Below are positions 2,048 to 60,937 of a stretch of 64,000 nucleotides of DNA, piece after piece. The translations under genes were made by a program, and so were the position numbers. Under the pieces are notes generated by a model. It saw only the letters and a program-made list of their open reading frames with translations, was not told the origin of the DNA and did no database searches. The stretch is from a virus: the IMG/VR virus record IMGVR_UViG_3300045988_147522; one strand, written 5' to 3'. How positions within the stretch are numbered: position 1 is the stretch's first letter; the number at the start of each line of letters is the position of its first letter.

Positions 2048-2305
2048 ATGGAAAACAAAATACATAGAACAGTAATGTTACACATTCAGCTTCAGCGAGA
2101 TGATTTTGACGATTTTCTTCACATAGCAGATGAATTAATGAGTGGCATTATTGAAGTAGCGCAAGGTAAGGAAGTGTTGTCTGGTAAAAGTCTACTTGGA
2201 TTAATGCTTATAGACACAAATAAACCACAAACACTTATTATCAGAGGTTTTTTCACTGATGATTATGTGGATAAATTTAGAAAATGGGAAATTAAGGAAG
2301 GGTGA
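2048..2305 (+). CDS. small HPr-like protein
   Basis: 85 aa. VAQGKEVLSGKSLLGLMLIDTNKPQTLIIRG resembles the HPr signature (..GK.V.AKSIMGLM.L....I.I.G). Tandem with the preceding similar ORF. Confidence 0.45.
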   Translation: MENKIHRTVMLHIQLQRDDFDDFLHIADELMSGIIEVAQGKEVLSGKSLLGLMLIDTNKPQTLIIRGFFTDDYVDKFRKWEIKEG

Positions 2306-2309
2306 TTAT

Positions 2310-2960
2310 ATCCGATTTGGTAAGAAGATAGTAAGTTTATGGGTAATGTTAGGTATGATGTTTGGCTTTTCGGCTTGTGGAGAATCAAACATCTCCACCC
2401 CTGACACTGCAACACGAGATACAGCCACTAAAGATACGGCAGTCAAATCAACAACGCAACCTACAACCGTCCATGTCACAACACAATCAACAACAGTAAA
2501 ACCAACTGAGAAAACTAAAAAAGACAAGAAGAAGTTTAAAACAACCTCTTCTCCTACAGCACCGCCAACAGAAAAAGTTGAAGTTCAAGCAGAAACAAAA
2601 ACTGTTACAAAATCAAATAATACATATAACACATCGTCAGATGAGGTAGATTTGTTGGCAAGAGTAATTTATTGCGAAGCAGGTAATTGTAGCGAGTATT
2701 GTCAGTGGTTGGTAGGTTCAACGGCAATGAATTTAGCTGACAGTAACGGTGGATTGAGAGCAGTAGCTTTTGATTATAATACATTCAATGTGGCAGGTAT
2801 TCTTTACACGAGAGATCCGAGCGAGTTGTCTTATTCAGTTGCTCAAAGGATATTGAGTGGTGATAGAGATCATAATGTCAGAGCTTTCAGAATGAGTTAT
2901 TATCATTCATTTGGAACACCGTATGCAGTGGTAGATAATGTTTATTTCAGCAGTTACTAA
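2310..2960 (+). CDS. lipoprotein with SleB-like cell-wall hydrolase domain (proposed ATC start)
   Basis: C-terminal DEVDLLARVIYCEAGN...WLVGSTAMNL resembles the SleB/Hydrolase_2 domain. An ATC start at 2310 (SD AAGGAAGGG 7 nt upstream) gives MRFGKKIVSLWVMLGMMFGFSAC, a lipoprotein signal plus lipobox. The ORF-track start at 2259 overlaps the upstream gene. Confidence 0.6.
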   Translation: MRFGKKIVSLWVMLGMMFGFSACGESNISTPDTATRDTATKDTAVKSTTQPTTVHVTTQSTTVKPTEKTKKDKKKFKTTSSPTAPPTEKVEVQAETKTVTKSNNTYNTSSDEVDLLARVIYCEAGNCSEYCQWLVGSTAMNLADSNGGLRAVAFDYNTFNVAGILYTRDPSELSYSVAQRILSGDRDHNVRAFRMSYYHSFGTPYAVVDNVYFSSY

Positions 2961-5297: not shown

Positions 5298-7400
5298 CAG
5301 GTATGAAAGTAATTAAACGAGATGGTCGAGAAGTTGATTTTGACCGCAATAAGATTATTTCTGCAATTGGAAAAGCAAACAGTGAATCCCATGTAAACCA
5401 CGAAAAAACATTGTCTGATGATGAAATTAAAAATATTGCTACAAGAATTTATGTCAAGCTCAGACGAAGTAAGAGAATTTACTCAGTTGAAGATATACAG
5501 GACTTAATTGAAGAATACATAGATAAATACGGCTGTTTTTCTTTGGCAAAAAGATACACACTTTACCGATACAAGCAGAGTTTAATCCGTAAGAAGAACA
5601 CTACTGATGATGCAATCCTTTCACTGATTGATTTAAGCAACGAAAACATCAAACAGGAAAACTCAAATAAAAACCCCACTATCATTCCTACACAGCGTGA
5701 CTATATGGCTGGTGAGGTCAGTAAGGATTTGACTGATAGAGTTTTACTTCCTCAAGATATTGTTGAGGCTGACAGAGAAGGAATTATTCATTTCCACGAC
5801 AAGGATTATTTTGCACAACATACTTATAATTGCTGCTTATGTAATCTTGATGATATGCTCCAGAACGGAACGGTTATCAGTGGCACTATGATTGAGAAAC
5901 CACACAGTTTTTCAACGGCTTGTACAATTGCAACACAGATTATAGCTCAGGTCGCCAGCAGTCAATATGGTGGACAGAGTATCAGTCTTACTGCTCTCGC
6001 ACCGTTTGTGGATATTAGCCGACAGCACATTAAAGATGGGTTGAGAAGAGAATGGAGTCAGTGTGGATTTGAAACTGACGAAAATAAGATTGCCGAGATA
6101 GCCGAAGAAAGACTTCGGAAGGAAATTAACAAAGGTGTTCAGACAATCCAATATCAAGTAGAAACACTTTTAACAACTAATGGACAAGCTCCTTTCATCA
6201 CAGTGTTTATGTATCTTAATGAAGCTAACAATGAGCAAGAGAAACACGACCTCGCTATGATTATCGAAGAAACACTTAATCAAAGGTATGAAGGTGTAAA
6301 AAATGAAAAGGGTGTATGGATTACACCTGCGTTTCCAAAGCTTATTTATGTGCTTGAGGAGGATAACATAACAGAGAACAGCAAGTATTGGTATTTAACA
6401 AAATTAGCTGCAAAGTGCTCGGCTAAAAGGCTTGTTCCAGATTATATATCCGAAAAGGTGATGAAAAAGCTAAAAGAAGGAAATTGTTTCCCTTCGATGG
6501 GTTGTAGAAGCTTTTTATCACCGTACAAAGAAAATGGTGAATACAAATTTTATGGCAGATTCAACAAAGGCGTAGTTACAATCAATCTTGTTGATGTAGC
6601 CTTATCGTCAGGTAAAGATAAAGAGAAGTTTTGGAAGATTTTCGATGAGAGATTGGAGTTGTGTCATAAAGCCCTCTTGTGCAGATATGAGAGGTTGAAA
6701 GGAACAGTGTCGGATGTAGCTCCGATTATTTGGCAACACGGTGCATTAGCAAGACTTCAGAAAGGTGAAACCATTGATAAGTTACTTGTTGGTGGTTATT
6801 CGTCAATATCACTTGGCTATGCAGGATTGTATGAGTGTGTAAAGTATATGACAGGCAAATCTCATACAGATCCGGAAGTAACACCGTTCGCACTTGATAT
6901 TATGAGATATATGAACAAAAAGTGTGATAAATGGAATGAGCAACTTGATTTAGGTTTTTCGCTGTATGGTTCTCCAATTGAAAGCACAACTTATAAATTT
7001 GCAAAATGTTTACAGCGAAGATTTGGTATTATCGAAGGTATTACAGATAAAAACTATATCACAAATAGTTATCATGTAAATGTCAGAGAGCCTATTGACG
7101 CCTTTGCAAAACTGAAACTTGAATCACAATTTCAGGCATTAAGTTTGGGCGGTGCAATTAGTTATATTGAAACTTCTAATTTGCAAAATAACACAGAAGC
7201 TGTCCTGTCTGTTATGCAATTCATCTACGACAATATCATGTATGCTGAGCTCAACACTAAAAGTGATTACTGTCAAGTGTGCGGATATGACGGAGAGATT
7301 GAGGTAATAGAAAATAAAAACGGTAAACTTGTGTGGAAGTGTCCAAACTGTGGCAACACAGATGAAAGTAAATTGAACATCTGTCGGAGAACTTGTGGGT
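5294..7400 (+). CDS. nrdD: anaerobic ribonucleoside-triphosphate reductase, exon 1
   Basis: ATP-cone N-terminus (VIKRDGREVDFDRNKI), class III RNR body and a CQVCG...CPNCG zinc site. It ends ...RRTCG inside the glycyl-radical motif. Confidence 0.9.
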
Positions 7401-8166
7401 TTGCTATAAGCCCACTTTAAACCGAATAAACTGCGGGGAAGTCCCCATAACCTTAATGGCTACAACATAGCTGGAAACGGCAAGTGTGAATGCGGTATAG
7501 GATTAAATCTGTCAGTCCGATAGGATAGAAACCATAAAAACATTAAGCAAGGGATTACCGAGTGTGCAAGTCACTCTTACGCAACGAAACTCCTTAACAG
7601 GCAATGCTGATGGAGGACGCTCAACGACTATAATTTCGGGGAATTGTTTCTTGCTTATATAAAAAGAGAAAAAGAGGGGCGTAGTAAATAATAAAAGAAA
7701 TTAATGATTATACGGGGTATTTTATTTCCGATACTGGAGAAGTATTTTGCAATTTAGGAAGGGGAAATCGAAATAGAGGAAAAATTATTCCTTTGTATAA
7801 GCTAAAACCTCGCATGACAACGAATGGATATGCTCGCATTTGTGCCAGACAAAATTCTACTGGCAAAAGAAAAGATTTATATATTCATCGACTTGTGGCA
7901 GAGAATTTTATCCCAAATCCTCATCATAAACAATATGTTAATCACAAAAACACTATTCGTAATGATAATCGAGTAGAAAACCTCGAATGGTGTACAGCAA
8001 AAGAAAACACTGAATATACATTACAAGTCAATCATGTTATAAGAAACCCTAACAACGGACAATATATCAGTAATTATACATACAAAGCATAAATTAAGTT
8101 GAAGAAACAATGAGATTGTATAGTCTACTCCCCTAATAAATATCGGGAAACCGAGGGTATAAAAGG
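7401..8166 (+). mobile_element. group I intron in nrdD
   Basis: Exon 1 ends in U. GUGGGU (7395-7400) pairs with GCCCAC (7410-7415), giving P1 with a U.G at the splice site. The last intron base is G (8166). Hairpins GGGG-AAGU-CCCC (7435-7446) and the GNRA hairpin UCGG-GAAA-CCGA (8143-8154). Splicing restores RRTCGYIGT. Confidence 0.75.
7688..8092 (+). CDS. intron-encoded HNH homing endonuclease (NUMOD4-like N-terminus)
   Basis: HNH motif HHKQYVNHKNTIRNDNRVENLEWCTAKEN. The conserved N-terminus EINDYTGYFISDTGEVF lies upstream of the first canonical start (TTG 7793). The frame opens at ATA 7688, 8 nt after GAGGGG. Confidence 0.7.
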   Translation: MIKEINDYTGYFISDTGEVFCNLGRGNRNRGKIIPLYKLKPRMTTNGYARICARQNSTGKRKDLYIHRLVAENFIPNPHHKQYVNHKNTIRNDNRVENLEWCTAKENTEYTLQVNHVIRNPNNGQYISNYTYKA

Positions 8167-8246
8167 ATATAGGAACTAACTTCTGGAATCAAGGAAGAAC
8201 ACAAGAAATCAAAGAAAGATATGTGCACTTGGGTGGTAACGAGTGA
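8167..8246 (+). CDS. nrdD: anaerobic ribonucleotide reductase, exon 2
   Basis: Joined to t7400 it reads (Y)IGTNFWNQGRTQEIKERYVHLGGNE*, a typical NrdD C-terminus. The stop overlaps the nrdG GTG. Confidence 0.75.
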
Positions 8247-8743
8247 ATTACATCAAAATCACTAAACACGATATCGCCAATGGAATCGGAATCAGAGTTG
8301 TACTATGGGTAAGCGGTTGTACCGTTCATTGTTACAACTGTCACAATCCTTCGACTTGGGATTTTACAGCCGGACAACCATTTACTAATGGCACTATGGC
8401 TGAATTACTTGAAGCGTTAAGTCCTGATTATATATCGGGGCTAACGCTCTCAGGTGGGCATCCATTGGAGCAAGTAAATCAACAACAAATATCTAATATT
8501 GTAAAAACGGTCAAGACCAAATTACCAAGCAAAACAATATGGCTATATACAGGTTATACATATGAACAGATATTGAAATCTAAGTTTATTGTAAACAAAA
8601 TCTTACCTTATATAGATATTCTTGTTGACGGTAAATATGATGAGTCGCAAAGAGATATTTCTCTTGCTTGGTGTGGCTCAAGAAACCAAAGGGTAATCAA
8701 AGTTCAAGAAAGTTTGAAATCAGAACAAGTAGTAACACTATAA
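8243..8743 (+). CDS. nrdG: anaerobic RNR activating radical-SAM protein
   Basis: CTVHCYNCHN cluster motif, GGHPL, immediately downstream of nrdD. Confidence 0.9.
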   Translation: MNYIKITKHDIANGIGIRVVLWVSGCTVHCYNCHNPSTWDFTAGQPFTNGTMAELLEALSPDYISGLTLSGGHPLEQVNQQQISNIVKTVKTKLPSKTIWLYTGYTYEQILKSKFIVNKILPYIDILVDGKYDESQRDISLAWCGSRNQRVIKVQESLKSEQVVTL

Positions 8744-8762: not shown

Positions 8763-9233
8763 ATGGCTACCGCAAATAATTTTCCTATCTCTAAGGAAAA
8801 TATAGGAAAGTATTGTGATACACTAATTGCTCTTAGACATCATTTAGAAATATTGCAACTTTACTCAGAAAGATATTGTGAGCTTAAATCACAATTCAAT
8901 TCATATTATGGGCAAATTGATGATTTATTACATCAAATTTCTTTAGAAAATACAACTGATAGTCAAAAAGCGATCTTGATTGATAAACTGTGTGAAGTAA
9001 AGGCGGAGCAAGCAATAATAAAAGATTTTATGGAAGTGTTTACTCCTATAAAGGAGTGGTATTCTATTCATTATTGTGAACTTGATAGTTTTAAATCAGT
9101 AGTCGATAAAATAATAAAAATCAGAGAAAAACAATCTAAAAGGCACTATGTCCAAAGAACCAATGTTGTGAAAGAGACATTGGGGAGAGAGTCACAAATT
9201 ATTAAAGGAGATGACGAAAATCAAAACAGCTAA
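8763..9233 (+). CDS. hypothetical protein (paralog of next ORF)
   Basis: The C-terminus ...EWYSIHYCELDSFKSVVDKIIKIREKQSKRHYVQRTNVVKETL aligns with the next ORF. Confidence 0.5.
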   Translation: MATANNFPISKENIGKYCDTLIALRHHLEILQLYSERYCELKSQFNSYYGQIDDLLHQISLENTTDSQKAILIDKLCEVKAEQAIIKDFMEVFTPIKEWYSIHYCELDSFKSVVDKIIKIREKQSKRHYVQRTNVVKETLGRESQIIKGDDENQNS

Positions 9234-9594
9234 AGAGTTAGAAGATACAATCAATTTTTTTACACAAACAACAGAAGATTATCAAAACAATACTGAAAAC
9301 GAATCATTACACGACTACGAAACACAAGATATCTTACATAAACTTGAACTTGAAGATGTGTCGTATCACGACACTGCCAAACTTGGAAAAACCCTAATGA
9401 AAGTTAGAGAGAACCGTAGAAAAGCAAAAGATAGTGTAGAACTTAACGCTCCATTAGCAGAATGGATTCAGTCACATTCTGATGTGTTGAAATCATTACA
9501 GAAAGTTCTTGGAGAGACCAGAAAAATTGAGGACAAACAGCGTAGAAGAATGTATGTCCCAAGAACGAAGATTGTCGAGGAGGTAATTCATTGA
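9211..9594 (+). CDS. hypothetical protein (paralog of previous ORF)
   Basis: ...EWIQSHSDVLKSLQKVLGETRKIEDKQRRRMYVPRTKIVEEVI aligns with the previous ORF. Confidence 0.5.
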   Translation: MTKIKTAKELEDTINFFTQTTEDYQNNTENESLHDYETQDILHKLELEDVSYHDTAKLGKTLMKVRENRRKAKDSVELNAPLAEWIQSHSDVLKSLQKVLGETRKIEDKQRRRMYVPRTKIVEEVIH

Positions 9595-18172: not shown

Positions 18173-18229
18173 TTCAAATTTTGAATTCAAAAAATGTAGT
18201 GTTTAAGCCAAAAGTAGACACTTCGACTA

Positions 18230-18279
18230 ACTGCCTTCTAAGCAGTAGGTCAGGGGTTCGAGTCCCTTTTGGCGCGCCA
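18230..18279 (+). other. 3' two-thirds of a tRNA-Arg(UCU) gene, probable attP core
   Basis: Anticodon stem ACTGC/GCAGT with loop CTTCTAA (UCU), variable AGGTC, T arm AGGGG-TTCGAGT-CCCTT, acceptor 3' strand TTGGCGC, then G and CCA. The upstream 30 nt do not form a D arm or a full acceptor stem. Confidence 0.55.
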
Positions 18280-18424: not shown

Positions 18425-18475
18425 ACTGTTGTCAAAACTGTTGTCAAAGTTTCAAAATTCTCTGACAACAGTTTT
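18424..18475. repeat. right-arm repeats: 2 direct and 1 inverted ACTGTTGTCAAA
   Basis: aactgttgtcaaa x2 (18424-18449) and ctgacaacagtttt (18462-18475), just upstream of int. Confidence 0.6.
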
Positions 18476-18501
18476 CAAAACACAAAATCGGAGGTCAATT
18501 T

Positions 18502-34930: not shown

Positions 34931-37900
34931 TTACAAGTGCCTATTATTAACAGTATAAGACATAAGTTTTTTGATAGTGTTATTCATAATCTTTTCGGAC
35001 TCCTTGTGCAGTGCATTAACAGTAGCCTGAGTAGCATCACCTTGTACATTGATGTGAATTGTAGGGGAAACAACAGTTGATTTATTGTTCACGACATTCG
35101 GTGTTATTTCAGAACCAAACTTCTGTGCAAAATAATCAGTTGGAGCTGATGCAAATTCAAACAATTCATTTGTCATCGCTTTGCTAAATACAGGATTGCC
35201 TTGTGGTAAGATTGTATATCTGCCATTACCAAGAGATGTAGGAATAAGTTCTGAACCGATACCCTCTTCGTCAACAATAGACAAACCACCTTTGGCTGAT
35301 TTTGTACCAGAAGCATACGCTTTCATTTTAGACCATAAAGAACCTGCTGGTAGCGCTCTTCCGCCATACCAATCTTTACTAATCCGACTTATGAAATATG
35401 TTTCAGCGTCCTCTTTGTTCGTTTGGTTGGTTTTATACACTTTGCCGTTATAGGTAATTGTATACCCATGACCTGTTATACTCGATGGTTGTATTTTAAC
35501 TGAATCAATCTTTGCTTTAGTGGTCTGTGCAGAATTACCCAACTCGTCAATTTTTTGCTTCAAACTATCAATTCGAGAAGTGTAGTTATCAATGCTTCCT
35601 GTCACATTAGCAATAGCAGAGTCTACATCGTAGATACGAGATTGTAGTGTATTCATTAAATCCATAACATTGAGCTGCGCAGTGCCATATTCATAAAGAG
35701 CACTTTGAGCCGACTGCCACATATGGTTAAACTCAGCCTCTGTGGTTGTAGTGTAATTTTGACAATACCACAACAGGTTGTTATACAATGTACCATTGTC
35801 ATTGTCAATCATATTACATGCAGCTCTGTGCAAAGATACCTCGTTGTTTAAGAAATCTTGAATAGTTTGGATTTCATCATCATAATGCTTATCTGTCTCT
35901 TCTTTCAGTTTATCTAAAGCTTCTTTGCGAGTATCATACTGATAGTCTGATAGATAATCATATAAGTCTTCTCTGGACTCAACCAAATCATCAACATTTT
36001 CTTTGTGAGCCTTTTTACCTGCGGAACTATCGTCCAGTCCAGTAATAGCAGCAGACAATGCGTTTGAAGCAACAGCATTTTCTTTCTCTTTGAGTTGTTT
36101 GTTGAAATCAGCTTCTTCTTTTTCTTTGTCAAGAAGTTCTTGTTTCTTTTCAATAAGTTCGTCAATTTTATCTTTGCGTTCTTGTAGTGCATCTATTTCG
36201 TCCTGCTTAGTCTGTTTAATGTACTTTTCTGTCCAATCGACTAAACTTTCAATCGCAGACAACGCATCCTCATAACCACTTTTAGTATCTTCTAACGCTT
36301 CTTTTTTCTTTTCTAAAGCGTCTTTACTTTTCTCAAGAGCTTTTTCTTCCTTTTCTATCTGCTTTTTGTACTTCTCCGAAGCAGAAGTAGCTTCGTCTGT
36401 AGAAGTAGACAAGTCACTTAATGAAGAAGCATACGAATCAATCAAAGCGGCTTTCTTACGCCAAGCAGACTCTGCCTGAATAACCGTTTGTTGATATAGC
36501 GTACCTGTGCCTTGTTCAGCGTCTTTAGCAGCAGCAGTTGCATATGCTTCTTTCCATTTTTTGTCCGCCAAATTAGTAGCCGACTTTGCAGCGCTGTCTT
36601 GACTCTTTTGAAGATATGCTAAAGCCTGTGTCTCATTTTTAAGTTTGCCTACTTCGTCAATTGCTTCTTGTAAGTAAGAAGCTTTCAGTCTTTCTAATTG
36701 AGCTTTGGCTAAATCTCTAAATTTTTCAGAAGTTAAATCAAGTTCGCCTTGTTCATTAACAAGTAAATTTATATAAGAGTCGTCTAACGACAAAACCGCT
36801 TCCAGAGTATCAAAAGATAATTTTCCGTTTTCGTTATATTCGTTAATAGCAGTTTTGACAGCCTTAAAAGCCGATAACACAGAAGTAACTTTTTTTGTGG
36901 CGTCTTCTGTAGATACTTTAAAAGTAACCTTATCTTCTGCTTCTTTTTTTATGTCTTTAACAGCTTTTTTTATGTCCTCTAAAGAACTAATATTATCTTT
37001 TTTGTTATACAACTTAGAGATCGTATTAAAATCCAGACTTTGCAAATACTCTTTGGTTTTGTCTTTTTGTTCTTTGGATACTTTATTTATCAGATCTGTA
37101 TTTTTTTTGGTGTATTCTTTTACTTTGTCTTGCCATTCTGATAATGTAAAGTCTGCCGTATCGGTATCGCAAGAAATCTGATAAACTATTTGTTTATCGT
37201 CATTTGACAATCCATCTATCCACTCGTTGAATCCTTGAATTTCTTTTTGAGCAAGAGATATAGCTCCGTTTGTGCCCAAATAGTGCATAGTTTTTGCAGT
37301 ATGATCTGCTGTGTCGCCAATATCAGCAATAAGGTTTTTTATCTTAACGCCATCAATCTCGATGCCTTTAGTGTCTAATTTTAATAAATCTTCGTTAGTC
37401 CATCCCTCGCCAGCTTCGTCAATAAGACTCCAAATGTATTCGTACACGGTGTCCGCATCCAACAACACTGCTCCGTCAGGCGTTTGTAGCATTGGAGAAA
37501 AAGCGATTTCCACACCATCAAAGGTATCCGATCCAGCAAATACAGTAGAAATTGTGCCTTTCATGTCTTTTACAGTAGAACCCCATGACTCTATCGCAGT
37601 TTTGTACTTTTCTAAATTAGAATCTGTCCATTCTAAGACTTCACGATTGTTGGTGTCAATATTGCCAAATACTGTTTGTAAAGGATTAACACCCATGTTC
37701 GCTGCTTCCTGTTGTATCTCTTCCAAACCAGTGCCATCAGCAAACTGTTCCTTGATACTACGAACAAAATTATTCGTATCAACTCCGCCCAGTTCAACTG
37801 GTATTGCAACAGGTATAATACCATTAATCGTTGATGTATTTTTAGCAGCAGATTTAGTATTATGGGTTTGTTTCGTTGCACGGTTGACAAGATTAGCTAT

Positions 37901-39475
37901 TGCGTCATCTATGTTTACATTATCAGCGACCTCGACATCTGAAAACAAAAGTTTTACAAACAATGCTTTTGTATCTGTATCTATACCGTCAACGCTTGAT
38001 AATACTTTTTTGATCTGATTACTCAAATCTTGATAATTTGATATATCAATCTTACCATTTTTAATATCGTCTATTTTAGACTGCACACTGCTTAATGTGT
38101 CAGCTAATTTTGGATTATCAAACGCTTTAATTATATCAGATACGGTTTGTTTAACTTTTTCTAAATTATCTGCTGTACTCGCTTCAGGATCAACAATCTT
38201 ACTGTAGAAGTTATCCCATGTGGCACTATTTATATATTGTTCAATAAGAACTTGACTTTTACTATCTAATGTGCTAAACTGCTCATTAGTATAGTGAATA
38301 TACGCATCAAGTACAGGCTTAAAACTATTGTTTACCAAATCGTTAATTTGACGCTTTAAAACGGATTGCTGGTTTTTGACTGCCGATATTATGGTAGATA
38401 AGTCTTTTTCGTCTATCTCATCATAAAGATAAGACATACCATACTCTGTACCGCCACCAGTCTTAACAAGATCTTCAATACCAGCACCTTTTAACGCTTT
38501 ACTTAAAGCAGGAGTTAATTGAGTATCTTTTTTTTTATTAAGATTCTGCACAAATTGGTCGAGTGCTTTAATTTGGGTGATGTAAGTTTCATCATCTGCA
38601 CCCCACATACCTTGATTAGTCCAGATGTTTTCTAACGCTTTGCCAATACTATCCTGCTCTTTAGACACGATAGTTTCGTAATAAGCATTCTTTTCATTAG
38701 TCATTGCCTTGTTAAGAGCTTCAACATTGTTTTTACACTCTAAGATAGCGTCATTCTGGGCTGAGTAACCTTTTACCAAGCCCGGATACATCTGTGCAAT
38801 CTCATTAGAAAGTTCAATATATCTCTCATACTGAGTAGAGGTTAAAGAGATATTTTCTCCATAAGAATTAACACCATCAGCTAATTCGTAATATTCATTT
38901 TTGATTTTGTTTACAGATGCTGAATGAGATGTGTAGGCATCTTTTTTGTCGTTAATCTCTGTTGTGATTTTTTCAAGGTCTGATAGGTTATTTTCAGCTC
39001 TGTTGATGTAATTATCAAGTGCTTCAAAACCAAAAGAAATTGCAGTCATTACACCTTGTATAATAAGCATATTACCAATACCTGCGGCAATATTCTTTAA
39101 CGAAGAGCCTAATGAAGATAGCTTGCCTTTAATGCCTGAAAAAGCACCAGACATTGATTGAGCATTTTTACTTAAGAGATTCTCTGATTCGGCATAATCT
39201 GTGTTGTATTGTATGCCTTTTAATAATTCTTGGTTTAAATCTTTAGTAGCTTCTGCAAATTTTGACTGCTTGAGTATATCTGCTTCATTAGCAGTTACTG
39301 CATTTTTTAAAACCTTGACATCTAAGCTTTCAGCGTAGGTTTTATATTCTTTATATTTGTCAATAGCCTTGTCAATATCTTGCGTTGCTCTGGCTTTGGC
39401 AGCCGTAGTAAACCATCCGATGTGTTTACCATTATCACTGTCTAAGTATGTTTGGAGTATCTTTCTCTTAGACAC
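34931..39475 (-). CDS. tape measure protein, distal part (1514 aa)
   Basis: Gly-zipper hydrophobic segment, >1000 aa of coiled coil, and a TMP-type C-terminus (GGLSIVDEEGIGSELIP...GRYTILPQGNPVFS). GTG start without an SD. Confidence 0.75.
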   Translation of the reverse strand: MSKRKILQTYLDSDNGKHIGWFTTAAKARATQDIDKAIDKYKEYKTYAESLDVKVLKNAVTANEADILKQSKFAEATKDLNQELLKGIQYNTDYAESENLLSKNAQSMSGAFSGIKGKLSSLGSSLKNIAAGIGNMLIIQGVMTAISFGFEALDNYINRAENNLSDLEKITTEINDKKDAYTSHSASVNKIKNEYYELADGVNSYGENISLTSTQYERYIELSNEIAQMYPGLVKGYSAQNDAILECKNNVEALNKAMTNEKNAYYETIVSKEQDSIGKALENIWTNQGMWGADDETYITQIKALDQFVQNLNKKKDTQLTPALSKALKGAGIEDLVKTGGGTEYGMSYLYDEIDEKDLSTIISAVKNQQSVLKRQINDLVNNSFKPVLDAYIHYTNEQFSTLDSKSQVLIEQYINSATWDNFYSKIVDPEASTADNLEKVKQTVSDIIKAFDNPKLADTLSSVQSKIDDIKNGKIDISNYQDLSNQIKKVLSSVDGIDTDTKALFVKLLFSDVEVADNVNIDDAIANLVNRATKQTHNTKSAAKNTSTINGIIPVAIPVELGGVDTNNFVRSIKEQFADGTGLEEIQQEAANMGVNPLQTVFGNIDTNNREVLEWTDSNLEKYKTAIESWGSTVKDMKGTISTVFAGSDTFDGVEIAFSPMLQTPDGAVLLDADTVYEYIWSLIDEAGEGWTNEDLLKLDTKGIEIDGVKIKNLIADIGDTADHTAKTMHYLGTNGAISLAQKEIQGFNEWIDGLSNDDKQIVYQISCDTDTADFTLSEWQDKVKEYTKKNTDLINKVSKEQKDKTKEYLQSLDFNTISKLYNKKDNISSLEDIKKAVKDIKKEAEDKVTFKVSTEDATKKVTSVLSAFKAVKTAINEYNENGKLSFDTLEAVLSLDDSYINLLVNEQGELDLTSEKFRDLAKAQLERLKASYLQEAIDEVGKLKNETQALAYLQKSQDSAAKSATNLADKKWKEAYATAAAKDAEQGTGTLYQQTVIQAESAWRKKAALIDSYASSLSDLSTSTDEATSASEKYKKQIEKEEKALEKSKDALEKKKEALEDTKSGYEDALSAIESLVDWTEKYIKQTKQDEIDALQERKDKIDELIEKKQELLDKEKEEADFNKQLKEKENAVASNALSAAITGLDDSSAGKKAHKENVDDLVESREDLYDYLSDYQYDTRKEALDKLKEETDKHYDDEIQTIQDFLNNEVSLHRAACNMIDNDNGTLYNNLLWYCQNYTTTTEAEFNHMWQSAQSALYEYGTAQLNVMDLMNTLQSRIYDVDSAIANVTGSIDNYTSRIDSLKQKIDELGNSAQTTKAKIDSVKIQPSSITGHGYTITYNGKVYKTNQTNKEDAETYFISRISKDWYGGRALPAGSLWSKMKAYASGTKSAKGGLSIVDEEGIGSELIPTSLGNGRYTILPQGNPVFSKAMTNELFEFASAPTDYFAQKFGSEITPNVVNNKSTVVSPTIHINVQGDATQATVNALHKESEKIMNNTIKKLMSYTVNNRHL

Positions 39476-39501
39476 AATATATTAAATAAGAAGGTGTTTT
39501 A

Positions 39502-39966
39502 ATGCTTGAAGTAGCAATATGTCCAAAATGTGGAGAAGTTAATTACCCTGCATTGGAATCATATAAGAAATGTTATTGTTGTTGGGTTGGTTTTCTTAAA
39601 AGACCTCGTAAATTGCTTTTTGAAGTTACAGAACAATTACAGCGAGAGCACTTTGAACGAGATGTTTTGGGAAGCAAAGAGGCTGAATATCTTTTTTGGT
39701 ATGAAAAATTCCTTAAAGACTGTCCTGAATATGATAATAGTCTATATGAAGAACACTTAAATAACAACAGACGCTGGGATTTAGTAACAAAACAACGACT
39801 TAATAAATTATCTTCCAAGCCAACTGTTAAATGTCCATATTGCGGTTCTTTGCGTACTACTAAAATTTCAACAAGTAGTAGAGTAGCTTCATCTCTCACA
39901 CTCGGCTTAGCAAGCAATAAGATAGGCAAGAACTATCAATGTAATGATTGCAAAGCCACCTTCTAA
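39502..39966 (+). CDS. double zinc-ribbon protein on the opposite strand between the tape-measure halves
   Basis: CPKCG...CYCC and CPYCGS...CNDC. SD GAAGGTG, with its own terminator. Confidence 0.55.
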   Translation: MLEVAICPKCGEVNYPALESYKKCYCCWVGFLKRPRKLLFEVTEQLQREHFERDVLGSKEAEYLFWYEKFLKDCPEYDNSLYEEHLNNNRRWDLVTKQRLNKLSSKPTVKCPYCGSLRTTKISTSSRVASSLTLGLASNKIGKNYQCNDCKATF

Positions 39967-39976
39967 TTAATAATTT

Positions 39977-40005
39977 GAGCAGTGTTTTATAATACTGCTC
40001 TTTTT
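39977..40005 (+). terminator. intrinsic terminator
   Basis: GAGCAGT-gttttataat-ACTGCTC followed by T5. Confidence 0.65.
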
Positions 40006-40007
40006 GT

Positions 40008-40036
40008 TTGTTTATAAAACTTTTCTTTTATATGAT
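40008..40036 (+). promoter_or_regulatory. promoter P2 (TTGTTT-17-TATGAT) sharing the P1 downstream element
   Basis: TATGATAGTCACTGTTG (40031-40047) versus TATAATAGTCACTGTTG (18101-18117), 16 of 17 identical. Confidence 0.45.
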
Positions 40037-40042
40037 AGTCAC

Positions 40043-40185
40043 TGTTGTCTCAGTGTCGATTTGGACTATACAATTTAAGGTCATTTCATATCGTTGAAAC
40101 TACCTCAAGAGGCTTATAGTCTCTGAACCTCCGCTTATGCGGCTGGATGCTGATTATGGCTTATTACGGCGGTTAGCTTTTGGCA
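40043..40185 (+). ncRNA. candidate small RNA driven by P2
   Basis: No credible ORF. CACTG/CAGTG 5' hairpin, a long nested hairpin at 40063-40123 (GGACTATA/TATAGTCT closing stem), CCGC-TTAT-GCGG, and a weak stem followed by TTTT near 40181. Confidence 0.3.
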
Positions 40186-40327
40186 TACGCCGAACAATAA
40201 CTTGTTTCTGACTTTCGTCTCCATATGGCGTATTGTTCATCACCATTTCCCAGAACGGCTATCATTCCGTTTGCAGTTTAACCTCTCATTTAACGACATA
40301 CATCACCATTTCTTGATTATAGCACGA

Positions 40328-43300
40328 TTACGCTACTTTCTCAAAATAGATAGGCATACTCCTAAAACCCGTCAATTTGGGTTTACCCTTGTCGCTTCCC
40401 ATTAATCCAGACAAAACGCCAGATATAGAAAGAGTACCAATGTTTGCTCCAAGATGAGAGAGCAATTCATTAGCTTGTGTTAAAAATCCTAACAATCCAG
40501 AGCCAGTATCAACTACGCCTTTAACAATATCACTTGATACTGTTGTTGTTGATAATTCCTGCCACTGTGCCTGAAATTGTTTTACTTTACCTTCGATACT
40601 ATCTATGTACTTTTCGTGTTCCTTTAATGCAGAACCATCTGAGTTCTTGGATGTATCTAATGAATTGATTGCTGTACCAATGTTTTGAATTACAGCAGAA
40701 GCGTAGTTAGACCTGTTCTTACCGGCGATAAGCTCAAGTAATGACGCTTTATTTTTATCAGCCAATTCATCCCATACGAGAGCGATATCTTTAAGAATAT
40801 CATAAGTGCTACGGAATGAACCATTGTCCATAATATCCACGCCTGAAGACGAAGAAGTTTTTGTTAAAGCTTTGATTTTGTCTTGAAGCTCAGAAGTTGT
40901 TGTGCACATTCCTTCCGTATCTTCTCCAGCCTTTTTAAGCTCCACCGACATACCTCTTAATCTCATAGCAAGCACTTTAAGTGCATTACCTGATTCATCT
41001 GCACTCTGTGTAACTTCGGTCATTGCGGTCAGCAACGCAATGGTTTCATCAAGGCTATTACCCGCAACAGCCATAGATGCGGCTGAGTTCTTCAAGCCTT
41101 CGCCTAAATCACCTGACGAGACAGCGTAATTATTACTCACCTCATTAAGTTTATCGACAATGCTTTGTGCCGATGAAGCTTCCATATTAAAAGCTTTTAA
41201 TATGGAAATAATGTCACTACTTGCTTCACCAACACCATCCAAATCGTCACCGACATTAGCATATATGGTTGCTACCTCTGCCAATTGCGTTGAGTCAGGT
41301 ATATCATAACCCATACGAGCAAAATCAGCGGTACTTGTAACAAAGTCACTAATAGTAGTACCCAGCTCTTTTGCTTTGCCAGTTGCCGTAGTTAAATATT
41401 TGTCATATGTCGAATCGGTGCTGTCTGTAACTTTCTTAAGCTCCACCATAGCAGTGTCTAACTCGGTTACAATGTGTATCATGTCTTGAACAGTAGCAAT
41501 AGCTTTATTCATAGACGAAGTGATAAAATTCCACGAACCATATTTAAGATAGTTCTTTGCAAGTGTGCGTAGAGCGGTTGCACCCATCAATCCAGCAGAC
41601 TCGGCAGAAGTCTTAATATTTGCAAACTGTGACTGGAAAGATTTAAGCTGTTGGCTACTGACTTTTGCAGCATCTGATGTTTTATTTAAAATGGTTTCAA
41701 TTTGTCCAGCATATTCTTGAGCAGCTTTAGGATTGCTACTCGCAAATTTCATAACCTGCAAACGCAGTGTTTCTACTGCTTTGCTGCTTGCGATTGTGCT
41801 TTTACTTGCGGTTTCTAAACTCTGACTCCATTTAGTTTCAAATTTATGTAAAGCAGCATTATTTCCAAGCTTACCAGTTACTTGATTTGTAGCGGTTATT
41901 TCTTCGTTAAGTAATTGAAATTTTTGGAGGTAGTCACTAAGTTCGTTTTTAAAATTGTCAGGAATATTGTGTCCGTTAAGTAAAGATGTTGTTTGCTGAC
42001 GCAAAGCTCGCATATTAGCCAAATATTTATCCAACTGACTATTATTAATAACCTCGCCTGAGCCATTTAAAATATCATAATGATATCCTTGCGCTTTGCC
42101 AGTTGCGTTGGCAGTATTGAGCTTTTCTTTAATATTGTTAATCCTACTTTGAAGCTTGTCTATAAAAGAATCATCTGCACCATTCCATACACCATTTTCA
42201 AGTAGTTTTTCACATTCTTGGCGTATATCTTCCAAGTCCGCTTTTGCTTCTTGTAATTGTCCTTCGGGGATAAACGCTACATTTTTACTGCGGTTTTGAA
42301 TGTCATCATATACTGTATCAATATCACTCCGAATCTTTTCTATTTCAGAACGATTGTTGTTTACAGTATTAGAGATAGAGGTCGATAACGCTTGTGCCTC
42401 TGTCGCAAAAGACGAAAGAAGTTCTTTTGGTACATCTTCTCCATTATTCCACATATCACCAATAATATCTTTTTTAGATATGAGGGTTGTAAGTTGAGAC
42501 CATGCAGTACGATATTCAGACACAGTTAGCAAGCTTTTGTTTTGCTCTTGCGTTAATTGATTAGTTGTTTGTGATACAAGAGCTTCTGCGTCTTGAAACT
42601 CCTTTAAGGCAGCAGTGCTTTCTGTAATAACAGCCAATTGACTTTGTAACTCGGAAGCGGATATTTCATTTGTGCGACCAGTAGGAGATACTACACGACT
42701 CCCTGTATCAATAAGTTCCTGTAATTCTGCTTTAGTTTTGTCTATAGACTCAGCACTAATTACACTATTTGAATTATGACTCTCAAGGATAGCATATAAG
42801 GATTGGGCAGTTTGAATAATATTATTAATTTCATTAACACTCTGTCTGCCTTCTGTATTGATTGCAGTTACATCTTGCAATAATTTTACAACCTTTTGGC
42901 TCAAATTGTCTAAATCAGCGACAGGAATTTCCAACCCTTGAGATAATGACTGTTCTAACTGTCTTCCTTCAGAAGCCAAACTTCTTGATACCGTAAGAAA
43001 TTTCTCAATATCTTGTGTATTTAAAAACTGATATCCTTGTTTTTGAAGGTTTAAACCGCCAATAATGCTTTGGATTCTGCTCTGAATCTGAGATAGCTCT
43101 TTTGCAGTTTGCTGATAATTTGTCACATCGGCTGTCGTCCGATTGCTATTATTATTCTTGCTATATTGACTACGAGATGCTTTGACTGTATTTCCAGTAA
43201 CACCAACCGAAATACTACCAATTGCTTTTTCAATGTCTTTCTTCAAAGACTTCATCGCGTTACTACAGTCAAACTTTTTAATTGTAACTACTGGAATTTT

Positions 43301-43531
43301 TGGAGGGTTTTTAAGAGATTTTTCAAATAGTGTCTGAACGCTCTTTTTTAATTGGTCTTTGGCTTGCTTGCTCTGATCGGCTTCTATATTATATATTTTA
43401 ATACCGTCAATAGCTTTAGCTAATTCTCCAACACTCTTTTTGAAAATTTTCTTGTCTTCGTTTCTTGTTCCAGCGATCACTTGGACGGAAATACCAAAAA
43501 TATCATTTTCATTTGCCACACATACCACCAC
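40328..43531 (-). CDS. tape measure protein, proximal part (1067 aa) with TP901-type core
   Basis: AKELGTTISDFVTSTADFARMGYD...SSGDLGEGLKNSAASMAVAGNSLDETIALLTAMTEV...NALKVLAMRLRG, then a Gly-rich hydrophobic tail. Confidence 0.8.
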   Translation of the reverse strand: MVVCVANENDIFGISVQVIAGTRNEDKKIFKKSVGELAKAIDGIKIYNIEADQSKQAKDQLKKSVQTLFEKSLKNPPKIPVVTIKKFDCSNAMKSLKKDIEKAIGSISVGVTGNTVKASRSQYSKNNNSNRTTADVTNYQQTAKELSQIQSRIQSIIGGLNLQKQGYQFLNTQDIEKFLTVSRSLASEGRQLEQSLSQGLEIPVADLDNLSQKVVKLLQDVTAINTEGRQSVNEINNIIQTAQSLYAILESHNSNSVISAESIDKTKAELQELIDTGSRVVSPTGRTNEISASELQSQLAVITESTAALKEFQDAEALVSQTTNQLTQEQNKSLLTVSEYRTAWSQLTTLISKKDIIGDMWNNGEDVPKELLSSFATEAQALSTSISNTVNNNRSEIEKIRSDIDTVYDDIQNRSKNVAFIPEGQLQEAKADLEDIRQECEKLLENGVWNGADDSFIDKLQSRINNIKEKLNTANATGKAQGYHYDILNGSGEVINNSQLDKYLANMRALRQQTTSLLNGHNIPDNFKNELSDYLQKFQLLNEEITATNQVTGKLGNNAALHKFETKWSQSLETASKSTIASSKAVETLRLQVMKFASSNPKAAQEYAGQIETILNKTSDAAKVSSQQLKSFQSQFANIKTSAESAGLMGATALRTLAKNYLKYGSWNFITSSMNKAIATVQDMIHIVTELDTAMVELKKVTDSTDSTYDKYLTTATGKAKELGTTISDFVTSTADFARMGYDIPDSTQLAEVATIYANVGDDLDGVGEASSDIISILKAFNMEASSAQSIVDKLNEVSNNYAVSSGDLGEGLKNSAASMAVAGNSLDETIALLTAMTEVTQSADESGNALKVLAMRLRGMSVELKKAGEDTEGMCTTTSELQDKIKALTKTSSSSGVDIMDNGSFRSTYDILKDIALVWDELADKNKASLLELIAGKNRSNYASAVIQNIGTAINSLDTSKNSDGSALKEHEKYIDSIEGKVKQFQAQWQELSTTTVSSDIVKGVVDTGSGLLGFLTQANELLSHLGANIGTLSISGVLSGLMGSDKGKPKLTGFRSMPIYFEKVA

Positions 43532-43532
43532 C

Positions 43533-44039
43533 TTATTTCAACTTTGCTATAATTTTTGTTGTAATACTTTTTTTGAAGTCTGAATTGTTTAGTTCTGCTC
43601 TCGTTGACGCTATAGGATTACGAACCCCCATAAAAGCATATTTTTTGGCATCATATCCGATAGCTCTCCATAAGTCAGAGGTGTAACTATATCTCTTTCT
43701 GGTATATCCATTCCGACCATATCCTGCTATCCAACGAATCAATGCGTCCGATGTAGTGGTTGGCACTTGATGAGTAACAACTGAGCGGTTTGGTGTTGCG
43801 ACAGAAGTTATGATAATCTTATTGCTCTCTTGGGACACATCTTGAATTTGGGAGCTGCTTCCTAAGCCATTCACACTACGCCTTACATAAGTTGTAGGAG
43901 TATATGTATCATAAATATCTGCTTTGATATTTTTTCTTAATTTGTCTTTAATATCTTGAGCAATATCGGTTTTTAAAACCTGAGAAGCCGCCTTGTTAAT
44001 TGCTTTGACAAATGTGTCATACGAATTGAAAGTCTTGAT
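43533..44039 (-). CDS. tail protein in the chaperone (GT-like) position, no canonical start
   Basis: The frame is open from 44051, directly after and in frame with the TAA of the upstream ORF. The first canonical start (GTG 43874) lies 59 codons in. ATC 44039 is 8 nt after AAGGGG. Confidence 0.5.
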   Translation of the reverse strand: MKTFNSYDTFVKAINKAASQVLKTDIAQDIKDKLRKNIKADIYDTYTPTTYVRRSVNGLGSSSQIQDVSQESNKIIITSVATPNRSVVTHQVPTTTSDALIRWIAGYGRNGYTRKRYSYTSDLWRAIGYDAKKYAFMGVRNPIASTRAELNNSDFKKSITTKIIAKLK

Positions 44040-44051
44040 ACCACCAGCCCC

Positions 44052-44699
44052 TTATTTAGCAGAAGGGAAGAGGGGAAGTGGACTGTTGTTTGGTTTATCT
44101 TCTTCCTCTTTGATAATGTGGTTTACCATATCCATCATCTTATTGAGGTCTACCTTATCGCCAATAGACGATATGTTTTCAGTTAATGCTTTAAACTGAT
44201 TCATAATTAATGCAGTTTCATAGGTCTTTTCGGAGATTTCCTTTTTCTGCATATATTCAATTCTCTTCTGAACACCTTCATATATTAACGCCAATTCTTT
44301 TTGATTGATTTTACTTTTAACAAACTCTGCAACACCTGTTTCTGTTACAAAAGAATACATTTTTTCAAAAACAGTAGGAATTGCAAAATTTGCATACTCT
44401 CTAAGAATCTGCATGTCAATCAATGTAGATGTGATTTCGGGAAGGTATCTATTTTCTGATATATCAAATACAGTTTCCGCTACTGTACTACAGATATTTG
44501 AAAGGCGTACTGCTCCGATAGTATGTTTAATTCTTAAAGAGATGTGTTCTATTTCTTCAGGCTTTTTATCATCTGTTGTTGCTGAATGAAATACATAATC
44601 ATAAAACTTTGGCTCATTTTTTTCTGCGTAATAAATTTTTCCAAAAGTCATTACTGGAATTTCTTTATAATCTTTTTTTTTATTTGTGCCTTTTTTCAT
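44052..44699 (-). CDS. tail assembly chaperone-like protein (position-based)
   Basis: ATG 44699 follows AAAGGA. The listed start at 44804 overlaps the RuvC-like gene. Two genes upstream of the tape measure. Confidence 0.5.
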   Translation of the reverse strand: MKKGTNKKKDYKEIPVMTFGKIYYAEKNEPKFYDYVFHSATTDDKKPEEIEHISLRIKHTIGAVRLSNICSTVAETVFDISENRYLPEITSTLIDMQILREYANFAIPTVFEKMYSFVTETGVAEFVKSKINQKELALIYEGVQKRIEYMQKKEISEKTYETALIMNQFKALTENISSIGDKVDLNKMMDMVNHIIKEEEDKPNNSPLPLFPSAK

Positions 44700-59658: not shown

Positions 59659-60768
59659 TTAATTTAGAGACATAAGTTTGGTTTTCTCACGAATAGCGTG
59701 ACCGTGCTCATCGAAACACATATATACAAATCCTTCTTTCTGAGAATTAACCAATCTTCCTTCGCTATATTTCATTTTTCTTGTTTCACAACAAGCACCC
59801 TGTTCATAGATTGCAGAATTTCCGATGACATAATACCCTTGACGATGAGTATGAGCCATAACAATATTTCTAAAATCAAATCCCTCGTTGCGAAAATAAT
59901 ACAAAGCTTTTTCTGCGGTTTTAAGCATTACCGAAGAGTATGCTCGTGGATGGCAAAATATTGTATCGCCAAACTGAGAGTACCATTTGCCTGTAAATTC
60001 AATTTCAATGTTACTATCTTTGAACACATGCGTCAGGGGAGAATACTCAGTCTTCGTTCCTATTTCGTTGTCATAATCAATAAATCCGTCTGTGAAAATA
60101 TAATCAAGTACAGATGACGGCATTATGTCACATAATTCACTGTTTGTCTTTTTTGCAATATAATCACCTATTCTCAAATCGTGATTGCCGTTGTTTGCAA
60201 TTACCTTTTTGGGATTCAGCAAATGAATCAGGTCAATTAAATATTGTCTTGCTCTGATAAGTTCTTTGGTTATACTTACATATTTCGACTTATTCGTAAA
60301 TTTTGATAACTGGGCGCAATCTACAAGGTCTCCGTTTAATTGCAATATATCTACACGACCTATGTATTTCTCAAATGTGCTAAGAGGCTTACAATAAGGA
60401 AAATGCAAATCCGATACTGAAAGAACTCTCGTGCTTACATTATCTTGATTTTTATAATTATAATAGTCATACACACCTGACGCATATTTTCTAAAGTGGT
60501 CAGATGATACGCTCTCACCAAGCAGGTTTACAATTTGAGACCATTTCAAAGGAAATTTTGTGCCATTTAGCTCTCCGTTCTTTTTAGCTACTATTAGCCT
60601 GATTTTCCATTCCTCGTGGGTTTCGTCTGGTCGCTGTAAACACCAATTGTCTATATATTTATTTGTGTTAGCTTTCTGCATAGTAAGACGCTCAACCCTT
60701 TCGTCTCTGCTTAGAGGCACGATTTTTTGCTTTAAGTATTTTAGCTGCCTCAATATTTGTGTCTGCAA
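59659..60768 (-). CDS. calcineurin-like metallophosphoesterase
   Basis: VSDLHFP, NGDLVD, GNHD, AHTH motifs. The true start is uncertain (TTG 60768 without an SD, or ATG 60681). Confidence 0.7.
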   Translation of the reverse strand: MQTQILRQLKYLKQKIVPLSRDERVERLTMQKANTNKYIDNWCLQRPDETHEEWKIRLIVAKKNGELNGTKFPLKWSQIVNLLGESVSSDHFRKYASGVYDYYNYKNQDNVSTRVLSVSDLHFPYCKPLSTFEKYIGRVDILQLNGDLVDCAQLSKFTNKSKYVSITKELIRARQYLIDLIHLLNPKKVIANNGNHDLRIGDYIAKKTNSELCDIMPSSVLDYIFTDGFIDYDNEIGTKTEYSPLTHVFKDSNIEIEFTGKWYSQFGDTIFCHPRAYSSVMLKTAEKALYYFRNEGFDFRNIVMAHTHRQGYYVIGNSAIYEQGACCETRKMKYSEGRLVNSQKEGFVYMCFDEHGHAIREKTKLMSLN

Positions 60769-60907
60769 TCAAACAGAGATATTCGGTCACTTCTGGTAAA
60801 TATCTTCTGTGTCTTTTTGCAGGCTTTCCTCGTCCTGTCTGGGGAATCCATACATCAGGAAACTCTGAGCGTATAATCTGACTCTCTTTTTTTGTGATTG
60901 TAATAAT
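60692..60907 (-). CDS. 71-aa basic, possibly HTH protein with a proposed ATT start
   Basis: Open frame from a TAA within the SD region. AAGGAG, then 8 nt, then ATT (60907). ...WIPQTGRGKPAKRHRRYLPEVTEYLCLIADTNIEAAKILKAKNRASKQRRKG. Not in the ORF track because there is no canonical start. Confidence 0.35.
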   Translation of the reverse strand: MITITKKESQIIRSEFPDVWIPQTGRGKPAKRHRRYLPEVTEYLCLIADTNIEAAKILKAKNRASKQRRKG

Positions 60908-60937
60908 TGTAAAAACTCCTTAAATTCAATTTATCAC

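Follow-up and report, generated by a model that had tools for sequence, protein, structure and literature searches.

Initiation at AUU and AUA directed by a Shine-Dalgarno (SD) sequence is a known mechanism in bacteria, and the initiation factor IF3 discriminates against start codons of the AUH type (AUC, AUU or AUA) (PMC2268962). In Staphylococcus aureus, AUA and AUU starts preceded by an extended SD were mapped by Ribo-Ret, their output being about 10% of that of AUG and reaching 30% at most (PMC13009471); four such sites, in infC, cvfC1, ccpN and citZ, are reported for the whole genome (PMC13009471). The starts of infC and pcnB have a low output and are discriminated by IF3 (PMC13009471, PMC2268962), the terS gene of phage TP-J34 starts at AUU (PMC3952083), and, according to a review of self-splicing introns, a non-AUG start is one means of down-regulating intron open reading frames (ORFs) (PMC3073962). 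Here we analyse a viral DNA of 64,000 nucleotides (nt), IMG/VR record IMGVR_UViG_3300045988_147522 (hereafter, the window), in which at least five of about 74 genes (about 7%) would start at ATC, ATT or ATA behind strong ribosome-binding sites, a reading to which we assign a probability of roughly 0.82. The proposed starts are ATC 2310 (site 1, an exported lipoprotein), ATA 7688 (site 2, an intron-encoded HNH endonuclease), ATC 44039 (site 3, a YomN-family protein), ATT 60907 (site 4, a small basic protein) and ATC 9220 (site 5, a 124-amino-acid (aa) protein).

These sites resemble infC (AUU in Escherichia coli, AUA in S. aureus) and pcnB (AUU in E. coli) in having an isoleucine (Ile) start behind an SD that is conserved among relatives. 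However, infC and pcnB are single cellular genes, the former with a proven feedback loop, whereas here we deal with five phage genes, three of them on AUC. As in S. aureus cvfC1 (AUU), ccpN (AUA) and citZ (AUA), where it is GGAGGTGAT-like, the extended SD ends a few nt before the AUH codon, and the ccpN start is conserved across species as the phage starts are among relatives (PMC13009471). On the other hand, the S. aureus starts number four per genome, were established by profiling and reporters and include no AUC, while those of the window number five in 74 genes and rest on comparative sequence analysis only (PMC13009471). Phage TP-J34 of Streptococcus thermophilus is, like the window, a Firmicute phage with a gene on AUU, in its case confirmed by resequencing, but there it is one gene in 60 and comes with no conservation analysis (PMC3952083). 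In intron-encoded endonucleases such as I-TevI, translation is lowered by a non-AUG start, a weak ribosome-binding site or a sequestered one (PMC3073962). Site 2 is akin to such genes, being an HNH gene with a non-AUG start in a group I-type intron of a ribonucleotide reductase gene; unlike them it has a strong SD, and homologous cassettes switch between ATA and ATG. It is hence not the mechanism but the density of the sites and the family-wide use of ATC or ATT that are unusual. What is new is the proportion of five in 74, the use of AUC (a search of the accessible literature turned up no native AUC start in a bacterium or phage), the retention of ATC or ATT across divergent lineages of one family, and the systematic mis-calling of these genes in public protein sets.

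A first-pass annotation of the window had proposed sites 1 to 4, and all four combinations of SD and Ile codon were verified where it had placed them; its count of four cases in 64 kb now becomes five with ATC 9220. When the window is tiled with ORFs, a long run of codons without ATG, GTG or TTG after the in-frame stop occurs in three genes and no others (35, 59 and 43 codons; sites 2, 3 and 4). In each of these leaders the position dictated by the SD is occupied by an Ile codon, which by chance has a probability of about 5e-4 to 3e-3, with Ile making up 7.7% of the codons of the window. Sequencing or assembly error is excluded, since each Ile codon recurs in other sequences: those of sites 1, 3 and 4 in 20-38 independent IMG/VR contigs each, that of site 5 in 33 and that of site 2 in 7 close relatives. 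Among close relatives the start codons vary only from ATC to ATT and never to ATG, while an ATG at the aligned codon does occur in homologues of sites 2 and 3. The SD duplexes lie at a spacing within the range of the 69 canonical starts of the window (56 ATG, 7 GTG and 6 TTG); competing canonical codons have SD duplexes of -2 to -7 kcal/mol. ATC is the rarest Ile codon of the window (18% of Ile codons), yet it provides three of the five starts and is used in six of nine lipoprotein lineages, which is consistent with the codon having been chosen for a role other than normal Ile decoding. The survey of starts and transfer RNAs covered 74 of the approximately 110 kb of the genome, and no further Ile-codon start was found in the extra 10 kb beyond the window (contig L274), an apparent start-less ORF there being a tandem-repeat region.

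The leaders also evolve as protein. Ratios of synonymous to nonsynonymous changes in frame are 5:1 at site 1, 7:7 at site 2, 7:3 at site 3 and 4:2 at site 4, the other frames being far worse, and family profiles align from residue 1-5 of the Ile-started products. The upstream extensions are thus conserved as protein, as judged both by mainly synonymous in-frame change and by their match to family N-termini. These comparisons indicate that the Ile codons mark the true N-terminal boundary of translated, conserved proteins, and that the sequence downstream of them is under protein-level selection. Relatives likewise favour initiation at the Ile codons over the downstream ATG, GTG or TTG, strongly for sites 1-3 and moderately for site 4.

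Several observations weigh against this reading. The evidence for it is entirely comparative. The combination of SD and Ile codon is common, since 79 of 1,366 internal in-frame Ile codons have a duplex of -7.7 kcal/mol or better at a spacing of 2-9; the motif alone therefore proves nothing, and the case is built on gene boundaries and relatives. The duplexes at the five sites (-7.7 to -13.2 kcal/mol) are no stronger than the average of this phage, in which nearly every gene is preceded by a strong and often extended SD (median -11.4 kcal/mol for the 69 canonical starts), so that nothing suggests that they make up for a weak codon; these energies, moreover, were computed with an assumed Firmicute-type anti-SD. 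An in-frame stop and the lack of any canonical start, which had been described for all four original sites, hold for sites 2, 3 and 4. At site 1, the frame of ATC 2310 contains ATG 2259 and ATG 2265 upstream without an intervening stop, hence this site is not strictly devoid of a canonical codon in the window. ATG 2259 has a GAGGT 10 nt upstream (-7.0 kcal/mol) and could contribute to initiation, as could the in-frame ATG 9211 that abuts the SD of site 5. Canonical codons are unavailable at sites 2-4 in the window itself, whereas at sites 1 and 5 they are lacking only in some of the relatives (at site 1 also in divergent homologues). Lastly, no distant homologues of the site 4 protein were found; it forms one cluster only, with few substitutions.

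The gene of site 1 (2310-2960, plus strand) encodes an exported lipoprotein with a SleB-like C-terminal domain, whose product would begin M/I-RFGKKIVSLWVMLGMMFGFSAC... The SD AAGGAAGGG (2294-2302) stands 7 nt before ATC 2310, and in its extended form AAGGAAGGGTGAT (2294-2306) it includes the TGA of the upstream gene (2303-2305), reaches -13.2 kcal/mol and ends 2-3 nt before the ATC. That TGA is in a different frame from the lipoprotein, and ATC 2310 follows it by 4 nt. ATC 2310 is kept in 38 of 38 relatives. The upstream canonical start is not available in all relatives: ATG 2259 is lost to ATA in four relatives, TGG 2268-2270 has become TAG in one and TGA in another with the remaining lipoprotein ORF intact, and three more metagenome contigs have no upstream in-frame ATG at all. 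All stop-creating and ATG-losing changes near 2259-2270 are synonymous or conservative in the frame of the upstream gene. Indeed, selection changes frame at about 2305-2310, substitutions as far as about 2305 being synonymous when read in the upstream-gene frame, and those from 2313 onward when read in the frame of the lipoprotein; between 2313 and ATG 2346 the latter frame shows five synonymous changes and one nonsynonymous change. The downstream ATG 2346 would give a signal peptide without a charged start and has no SD (-2.0 kcal/mol), bearing out the earlier remark that the internal Met leaves no n-region.

Divergent homologues of the site 1 protein provided the strongest evidence. In the protein database, many family members have impossibly short called N-termini ('MIVLSGC...', MTLAFLFIGAAC..., 'MLVAIALFL...'), and the called N-termini are truncated or without lysine or arginine (K/R) in 66 of 120 family clusters. 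We examined the DNA of eight divergent lineages, 41-56% identical to site 1 and lying in differing genomic settings. In seven of them an in-frame stop is followed, with no ATG, GTG or TTG, by an extended SD, a spacer of 2-3 nt and an ATC (L304-307, L309, L314/315 and L320) or ATT (L310, L312 and L321); in the eighth, L308, an ATC occupies the slot, with an alternative TTG two codons upstream. The extended SDs of the divergent lineages range from -9.6 to -17.7 kcal/mol, and starting at the ATC or ATT restores the K/R-rich beginning of the signal peptide. A metagenome scan found ATC throughout a clade of about 48% identity, with a nearly identical SD and with the ATC 37 nt after the upstream gene, and ATT throughout a clade of 41-44% identity. 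Other members of the subfamily have ATG and normal N-termini, one homologue (P0116) has its M one codon downstream of the Ile position of site 1, and more distant SleB-like proteins start at ATG or TTG.

The C-terminal domain of this protein (window 2640-2957) is predicted to adopt the SleB lytic-transglycosylase fold. The AlphaFold2 model has a predicted local distance difference test score mostly above 90 over residues 107-216, and the top Foldseek matches of the domain are PDB 4F55 and 4FET (probability 1.0, target-normalised template-modelling score 0.73-0.75). At the sequence level there is no Pfam match to SleB/Hydrolase_2, TIGR02869 matches at E = 0.046, well short of the cutoff of that model, and searching PDB with a profile gave no match; the identity to SleB is about 15% and not significant, although the predicted fold matches. 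The family has an invariant motif, CSEYCQWLVGST, and an invariant Glu in a conserved YxEAG. Unlike SleB, a lytic transglycosylase of the spore cortex, the site 1 protein is phage-encoded, carries a lipoprotein signal peptide and has an activity that is predicted. Its gene sits among early nucleotide-metabolism genes.

Site 3 allows comparison with a family whose start is well defined. The gene (43533-44039, minus strand), just upstream of a tape-measure gene, encodes a YomN-family (PF27376) protein with ATC 44039 as its proposed start. The SD region TAAGGGGCTGGTG (44042-44054, minus strand; -10.3 kcal/mol) opens at the TAA of the upstream gene, which is in the same frame; the SD itself, AAGGGG (44053-44048), is 8 nt from the ATC, and the ATC is 12 nt after the in-frame TAA. 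A phmmer search returned 57 homologues of 150-170 aa, most of them aligned with the site 3 protein from residue 3 of both. When 21 distant homologues are aligned, Met stands in column 1 in all 21 and an invariant Phe at position 4, where the window reads I-K-T-F. Locus L301 (37% identical) has the same gene order before the tape-measure gene, and its upstream gene ends in AAA TAA followed by 12 nt and ATG, as against TAA, 12 nt and ATC in the window. Close relatives have ATC (17) or ATT (4), and the 55-codon leader shows seven synonymous and three nonsynonymous changes in frame versus 1:9 and 3:7 out of frame. The PF27376 label is precomputed on P0001 (98% identical), P0002 and P0009; a local copy of Pfam gave no match for the site 3 protein. 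Furthermore, two unrelated gut contigs, L316 (394-906) and L317 (146-658), encode a 31%-identical YomN homologue in which TAAAGGAGGTA, 6 nt and an ATA stand at the Met position of the family, the gene call of L316 being an upstream GTG without an SD. The ATA of L316 represents an independent Ile-codon start in another phage.

Other features of the tail module are worth recording here. Two very large genes of 1,063 and 1,514 aa lie nearly in tandem (34931-43537, minus strand), and both match tape-measure families of the PHROG collection. The first canonical codon of the 1,514-aa gene, GTG 39475, has no SD whatsoever (+0.2 kcal/mol; region 39440-39520). On the opposite strand beside this gene, a 154-aa ORF with a good SD (39502-39966, plus strand) stands alone among minus-strand genes. 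A RuvC-like resolvase gene is located at 45249-44716, within the tail module.

Site 2 had been labelled an intron HNH endonuclease, and this label is right: nrdD is split at its glycyl-radical codon by a 766-nt group I-type intron (7401-8166, plus strand). Exon 1 ends at 7400 (...TGT GGG T) and exon 2 spans 8167-8246 (AT ATA GGA...); the unspliced ORF ends 'RRTCGFAISPL' and a stop, and joining 7400 to 8167 restores RRTCGYIGTNFWNQGRTQEIKERYVHLGGNE, in which RRTCG is followed by YIG. Relatives exist in three states: without an intron, with an intron of about 320 nt lacking a homing endonuclease gene, and with an intron of about 765 nt carrying the HNH gene in a terminal loop. Rfam gave no group I ribozyme match in 7300-8400 at E <= 1, so that the tentative assignment to group I draws on the U that precedes the intron, its terminal G and the presence/absence polymorphism; a conserved core-like sequence is also common to L087-L090. 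The gene of the homing endonuclease (NUMOD4 + HNH_3; 7688-8092, plus strand) has the SD GAGGGG (7674-7679; -9.0 kcal/mol; AAGGAGGG or AAGGAGAG in relatives) 8 nt before ATA 7688, which directly follows the in-frame TAA 7685-7687. PHROG and Pfam (NUMOD4, HNH_3) matches begin at residue 1-3, in agreement with the proposal that a NUMOD4-like N-terminus precedes TTG 7793. Among homologous cassettes, L087 (72% identical) reads ATG ATA AAA where the window reads ATA ATA AAA, L088 has an ATG eight codons upstream, and L089 has no canonical start either, with GAGGAAG, 7 nt and ATA.

Site 4 appears to be the least supported of the five. Its gene (60692-60907, minus strand) lies upstream of a metallophosphoesterase gene and would encode a 71-aa basic protein from ATT 60907 or ATT 60904. 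The SD AAGGAG (60916-60921, minus strand; -7.7 kcal/mol) is 8 nt from ATT 60907 and overlaps an in-frame TAA. The pair ATT ATT is invariant in 20 of 20 relatives, and the leader shows four synonymous and two nonsynonymous changes in frame, with 0:6 in each of the other two frames; the first canonical codon of the ORF, GTG 60790, is without an SD. In one short contig, whose upstream region differs, an ATG precedes the site 4 start by two codons. In the search for a sister clade of sites 3 and 4 through neighbouring genes, the metallophosphoesterase scan gave only relatives of 98-99% identity, and alignment A3 gave one weak locus. The metallophosphoesterase ATG 60681 (minus strand) is 10 nt after the stop of site 4, and the sole SD-like sequence before it, AAGGG, is distant. 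Translation of the enzyme may depend on coupling to the ORF that starts at ATT, in which case the weak ATT start could also throttle the metallophosphoesterase.

Site 5 (9220-9594, plus strand) encodes a 124-aa protein matching phrog_2717 (E = 3e-17). The extended SD AAAGGAGATGA (9204-9214, plus strand) contains ATG 9211; duplex energies are -11.0 kcal/mol for ATC 9220 and -3.2 kcal/mol for ATG 9211, and the latter, inside the SD and with no spacing of its own, is a poor start candidate. In 9 of 33 relatives one extra A (1 nt) shifts the ATG out of frame and a TGA stands in frame two codons before the ATC (ATT in one). The 124-aa ORF is intact despite this insertion, and is 97.6% identical in L213. 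The sister-clade homologue is only 28% identical.

Among the other explanations, the one that survives best is a start rule relaxed in the host or the phage, for example by a poorly discriminating IF3, by a phage factor that targets IF3 or by a dedicated initiator tRNA, under which AUH would be an ordinary, efficient start and no throttle. The share of about 7% of genes using AUH would be expected from it, as would the recurrence of AUH starts in unrelated gut-phage contigs and in two different families. Against this, 93% of the genes of the window still start at ATG, GTG or TTG, and no initiator-like tRNA was detected by ARAGORN in the window and in four loci reaching 10 kb past its end, Rfam reporting only an Arg(UCU)-like tRNA. 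We therefore regard a relaxed rule as unlikely.

Quite unlikely, too, is initiation at canonical codons alone, whether downstream (ATG 2346, TTG 7793, GTG 43874 and GTG 60790) or upstream (ATG 2259 and ATG 9211), the Ile leaders being untranslated or accidental. Gene callers did choose such codons, as in P0001, which starts inside the YomN homologue, P0059, which starts at ATG 2259, and P0060 and P0064 ('MLGMMF'), and ATG 2259 has the modest SD mentioned above (-7.0 kcal/mol). But the downstream codons are almost without SD (-2.0 to -6.1 kcal/mol), and starting there would deprive YomN of a third of its length, the endonuclease of its NUMOD4 motif and the lipoprotein of the beginning of its signal peptide. 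The leaders are, contrary to what this explanation implies, homologous to family N-termini and evolve mainly by in-frame synonymous change, and in relatives the upstream ATGs are cut off from the Ile codon by stops or frameshifts.

The leaders might instead be translated as a fusion with the upstream gene, through readthrough at site 3 or frameshifting at sites 1 and 5, in the manner of the tail-chaperone G/GT pair, which adjoins tape-measure genes. At site 3 the upstream ORF is indeed in the same frame with only a TAA between, just before the tape-measure gene, and site 1 is 4 nt after the upstream stop. A fusion is nevertheless highly improbable. A well-placed SD precedes every site, and sites 2 and 4 have no translated upstream gene; YomN homologues are stand-alone with Met at the exact column, L301 having its own SD and an ATG 12 nt after the same TAA; and in the clade of about 48% identity the lipoprotein ATC stands 37 nt beyond the upstream gene. 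Finally, although the window is metagenomic and HNH homing endonuclease genes often decay, sequencing or assembly errors and decaying pseudogenes can be dismissed, as the same codons recur in contigs from many samples, in the numbers given above, and the ORFs are undisrupted and evolve under purifying selection.

The window belongs to an uncultured, SPbeta-like phage, roughly 105-114 kb in size, of a human-gut Firmicute. The GC content of the window is 35%; its plus strand carries the genes of the first 19.7 kb or so, and its minus strand those between about 19.9 kb and the end at 64 kb. Proteins 91-99% identical to those of the window are encoded by many IMG/VR contigs, 105-114 kb in length, of human-gut metagenomes, and SPbeta-type Pfam labels (YomN, YomU and YomX) occur on structural genes of one syntenic homologue. 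The annotated phage collection held no close relative and no nucleotide match, nor a protein match to the site 1 lipoprotein; nrdD alone was matched, to uncultured 'Bacteriophage sp.' records and Enterocloster phages. A single scan of host genomes gave a 36% match in a metagenome-assembled genome of Eubacteriales. Reassignment of stop codons was ruled out, nrdD and other genes reading normally in code 11, and mini-ORFs opening at a GTG or ATG within the SD were rejected as short and not conserved. Positions 18207-18274 resemble a tRNA with a short acceptor stem and the Arg anticodon UCU (plus strand; 32.5 bits in Rfam, just over the gathering score, and no match in ARAGORN). At 18427-18482 (plus strand), just upstream of a gene starting at 18502, a near-perfect 21-bp hairpin gave a chance match to a microRNA family in Rfam. 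About 4-5 kb past the end of the window, L274 carries four tandem copies of a unit of about 35 nt, cagagaggaacggacaccctcggcgacagaacagt (5530-5700, minus strand), just after a terminator-like hairpin; these may be iterons, a packaging element or an origin element.

By analogy with infC, pcnB and S. aureus ccpN, initiation at these sites would be near-cognate. The helix between SD and anti-SD would put AUC, AUU or AUA, instead of AUG, GUG or UUG, in the ribosomal P site, where the initiator formylmethionine (fMet)-tRNA would pair with the first two codon bases while the strong, start-proximal SD holds the initiation complex in place; the product would then begin with fMet and not with Ile. By the same analogy, output would be a fraction of that from AUG and would depend on discrimination by IF3. 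The first-pass annotation had suggested deliberate low-level or regulated initiation, which we infer to be most credible for site 1, because ATC or ATT is kept there across divergent lineages of the exported SleB-like protein. Such retention suggests that the weak start was selected and is not a mutational accident. A low output would suit a homing endonuclease inside a ribozyme, a tail-module protein that is perhaps needed in few copies and, above all, an exported peptidoglycan-cleaving lipoprotein, since a SleB-like lipoprotein could damage the cell if over-produced. A wider proposition, which we hold to be doubtful though worth stating, is that AUH initiation is systematic and overlooked in a large group of gut-Firmicute phages, at several percent of genes, the muralytic lipoprotein being tied to the balance of IF3 and ribosomes as a timer or safety catch, or else a host clade or the phage relaxing start discrimination generally.

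Standard gene callers accept ATG, GTG and TTG only. For the proteins of sites 1 and 3 and for their homologues, the public protein collection contains only truncated or wrongly extended versions, for instance a YomN protein of 135 aa instead of the expected 168 aa, or lipoproteins opening 'MIVLSGC'. With callers limited to these codons, signal peptides, N-terminal domains and whole small genes of gut phages are lost systematically. The AUC sites, in turn, offer natural material for work on how near-cognate initiation is licensed by an extended SD in Firmicutes. infC was itself recognised as regulated from its conserved non-AUG start. A non-AUG start maintained across lipoprotein lineages of 41-56% identity bears the same kind of signature, and suggests that a predicted peptidoglycan-cleaving enzyme of these phages is under translational control.

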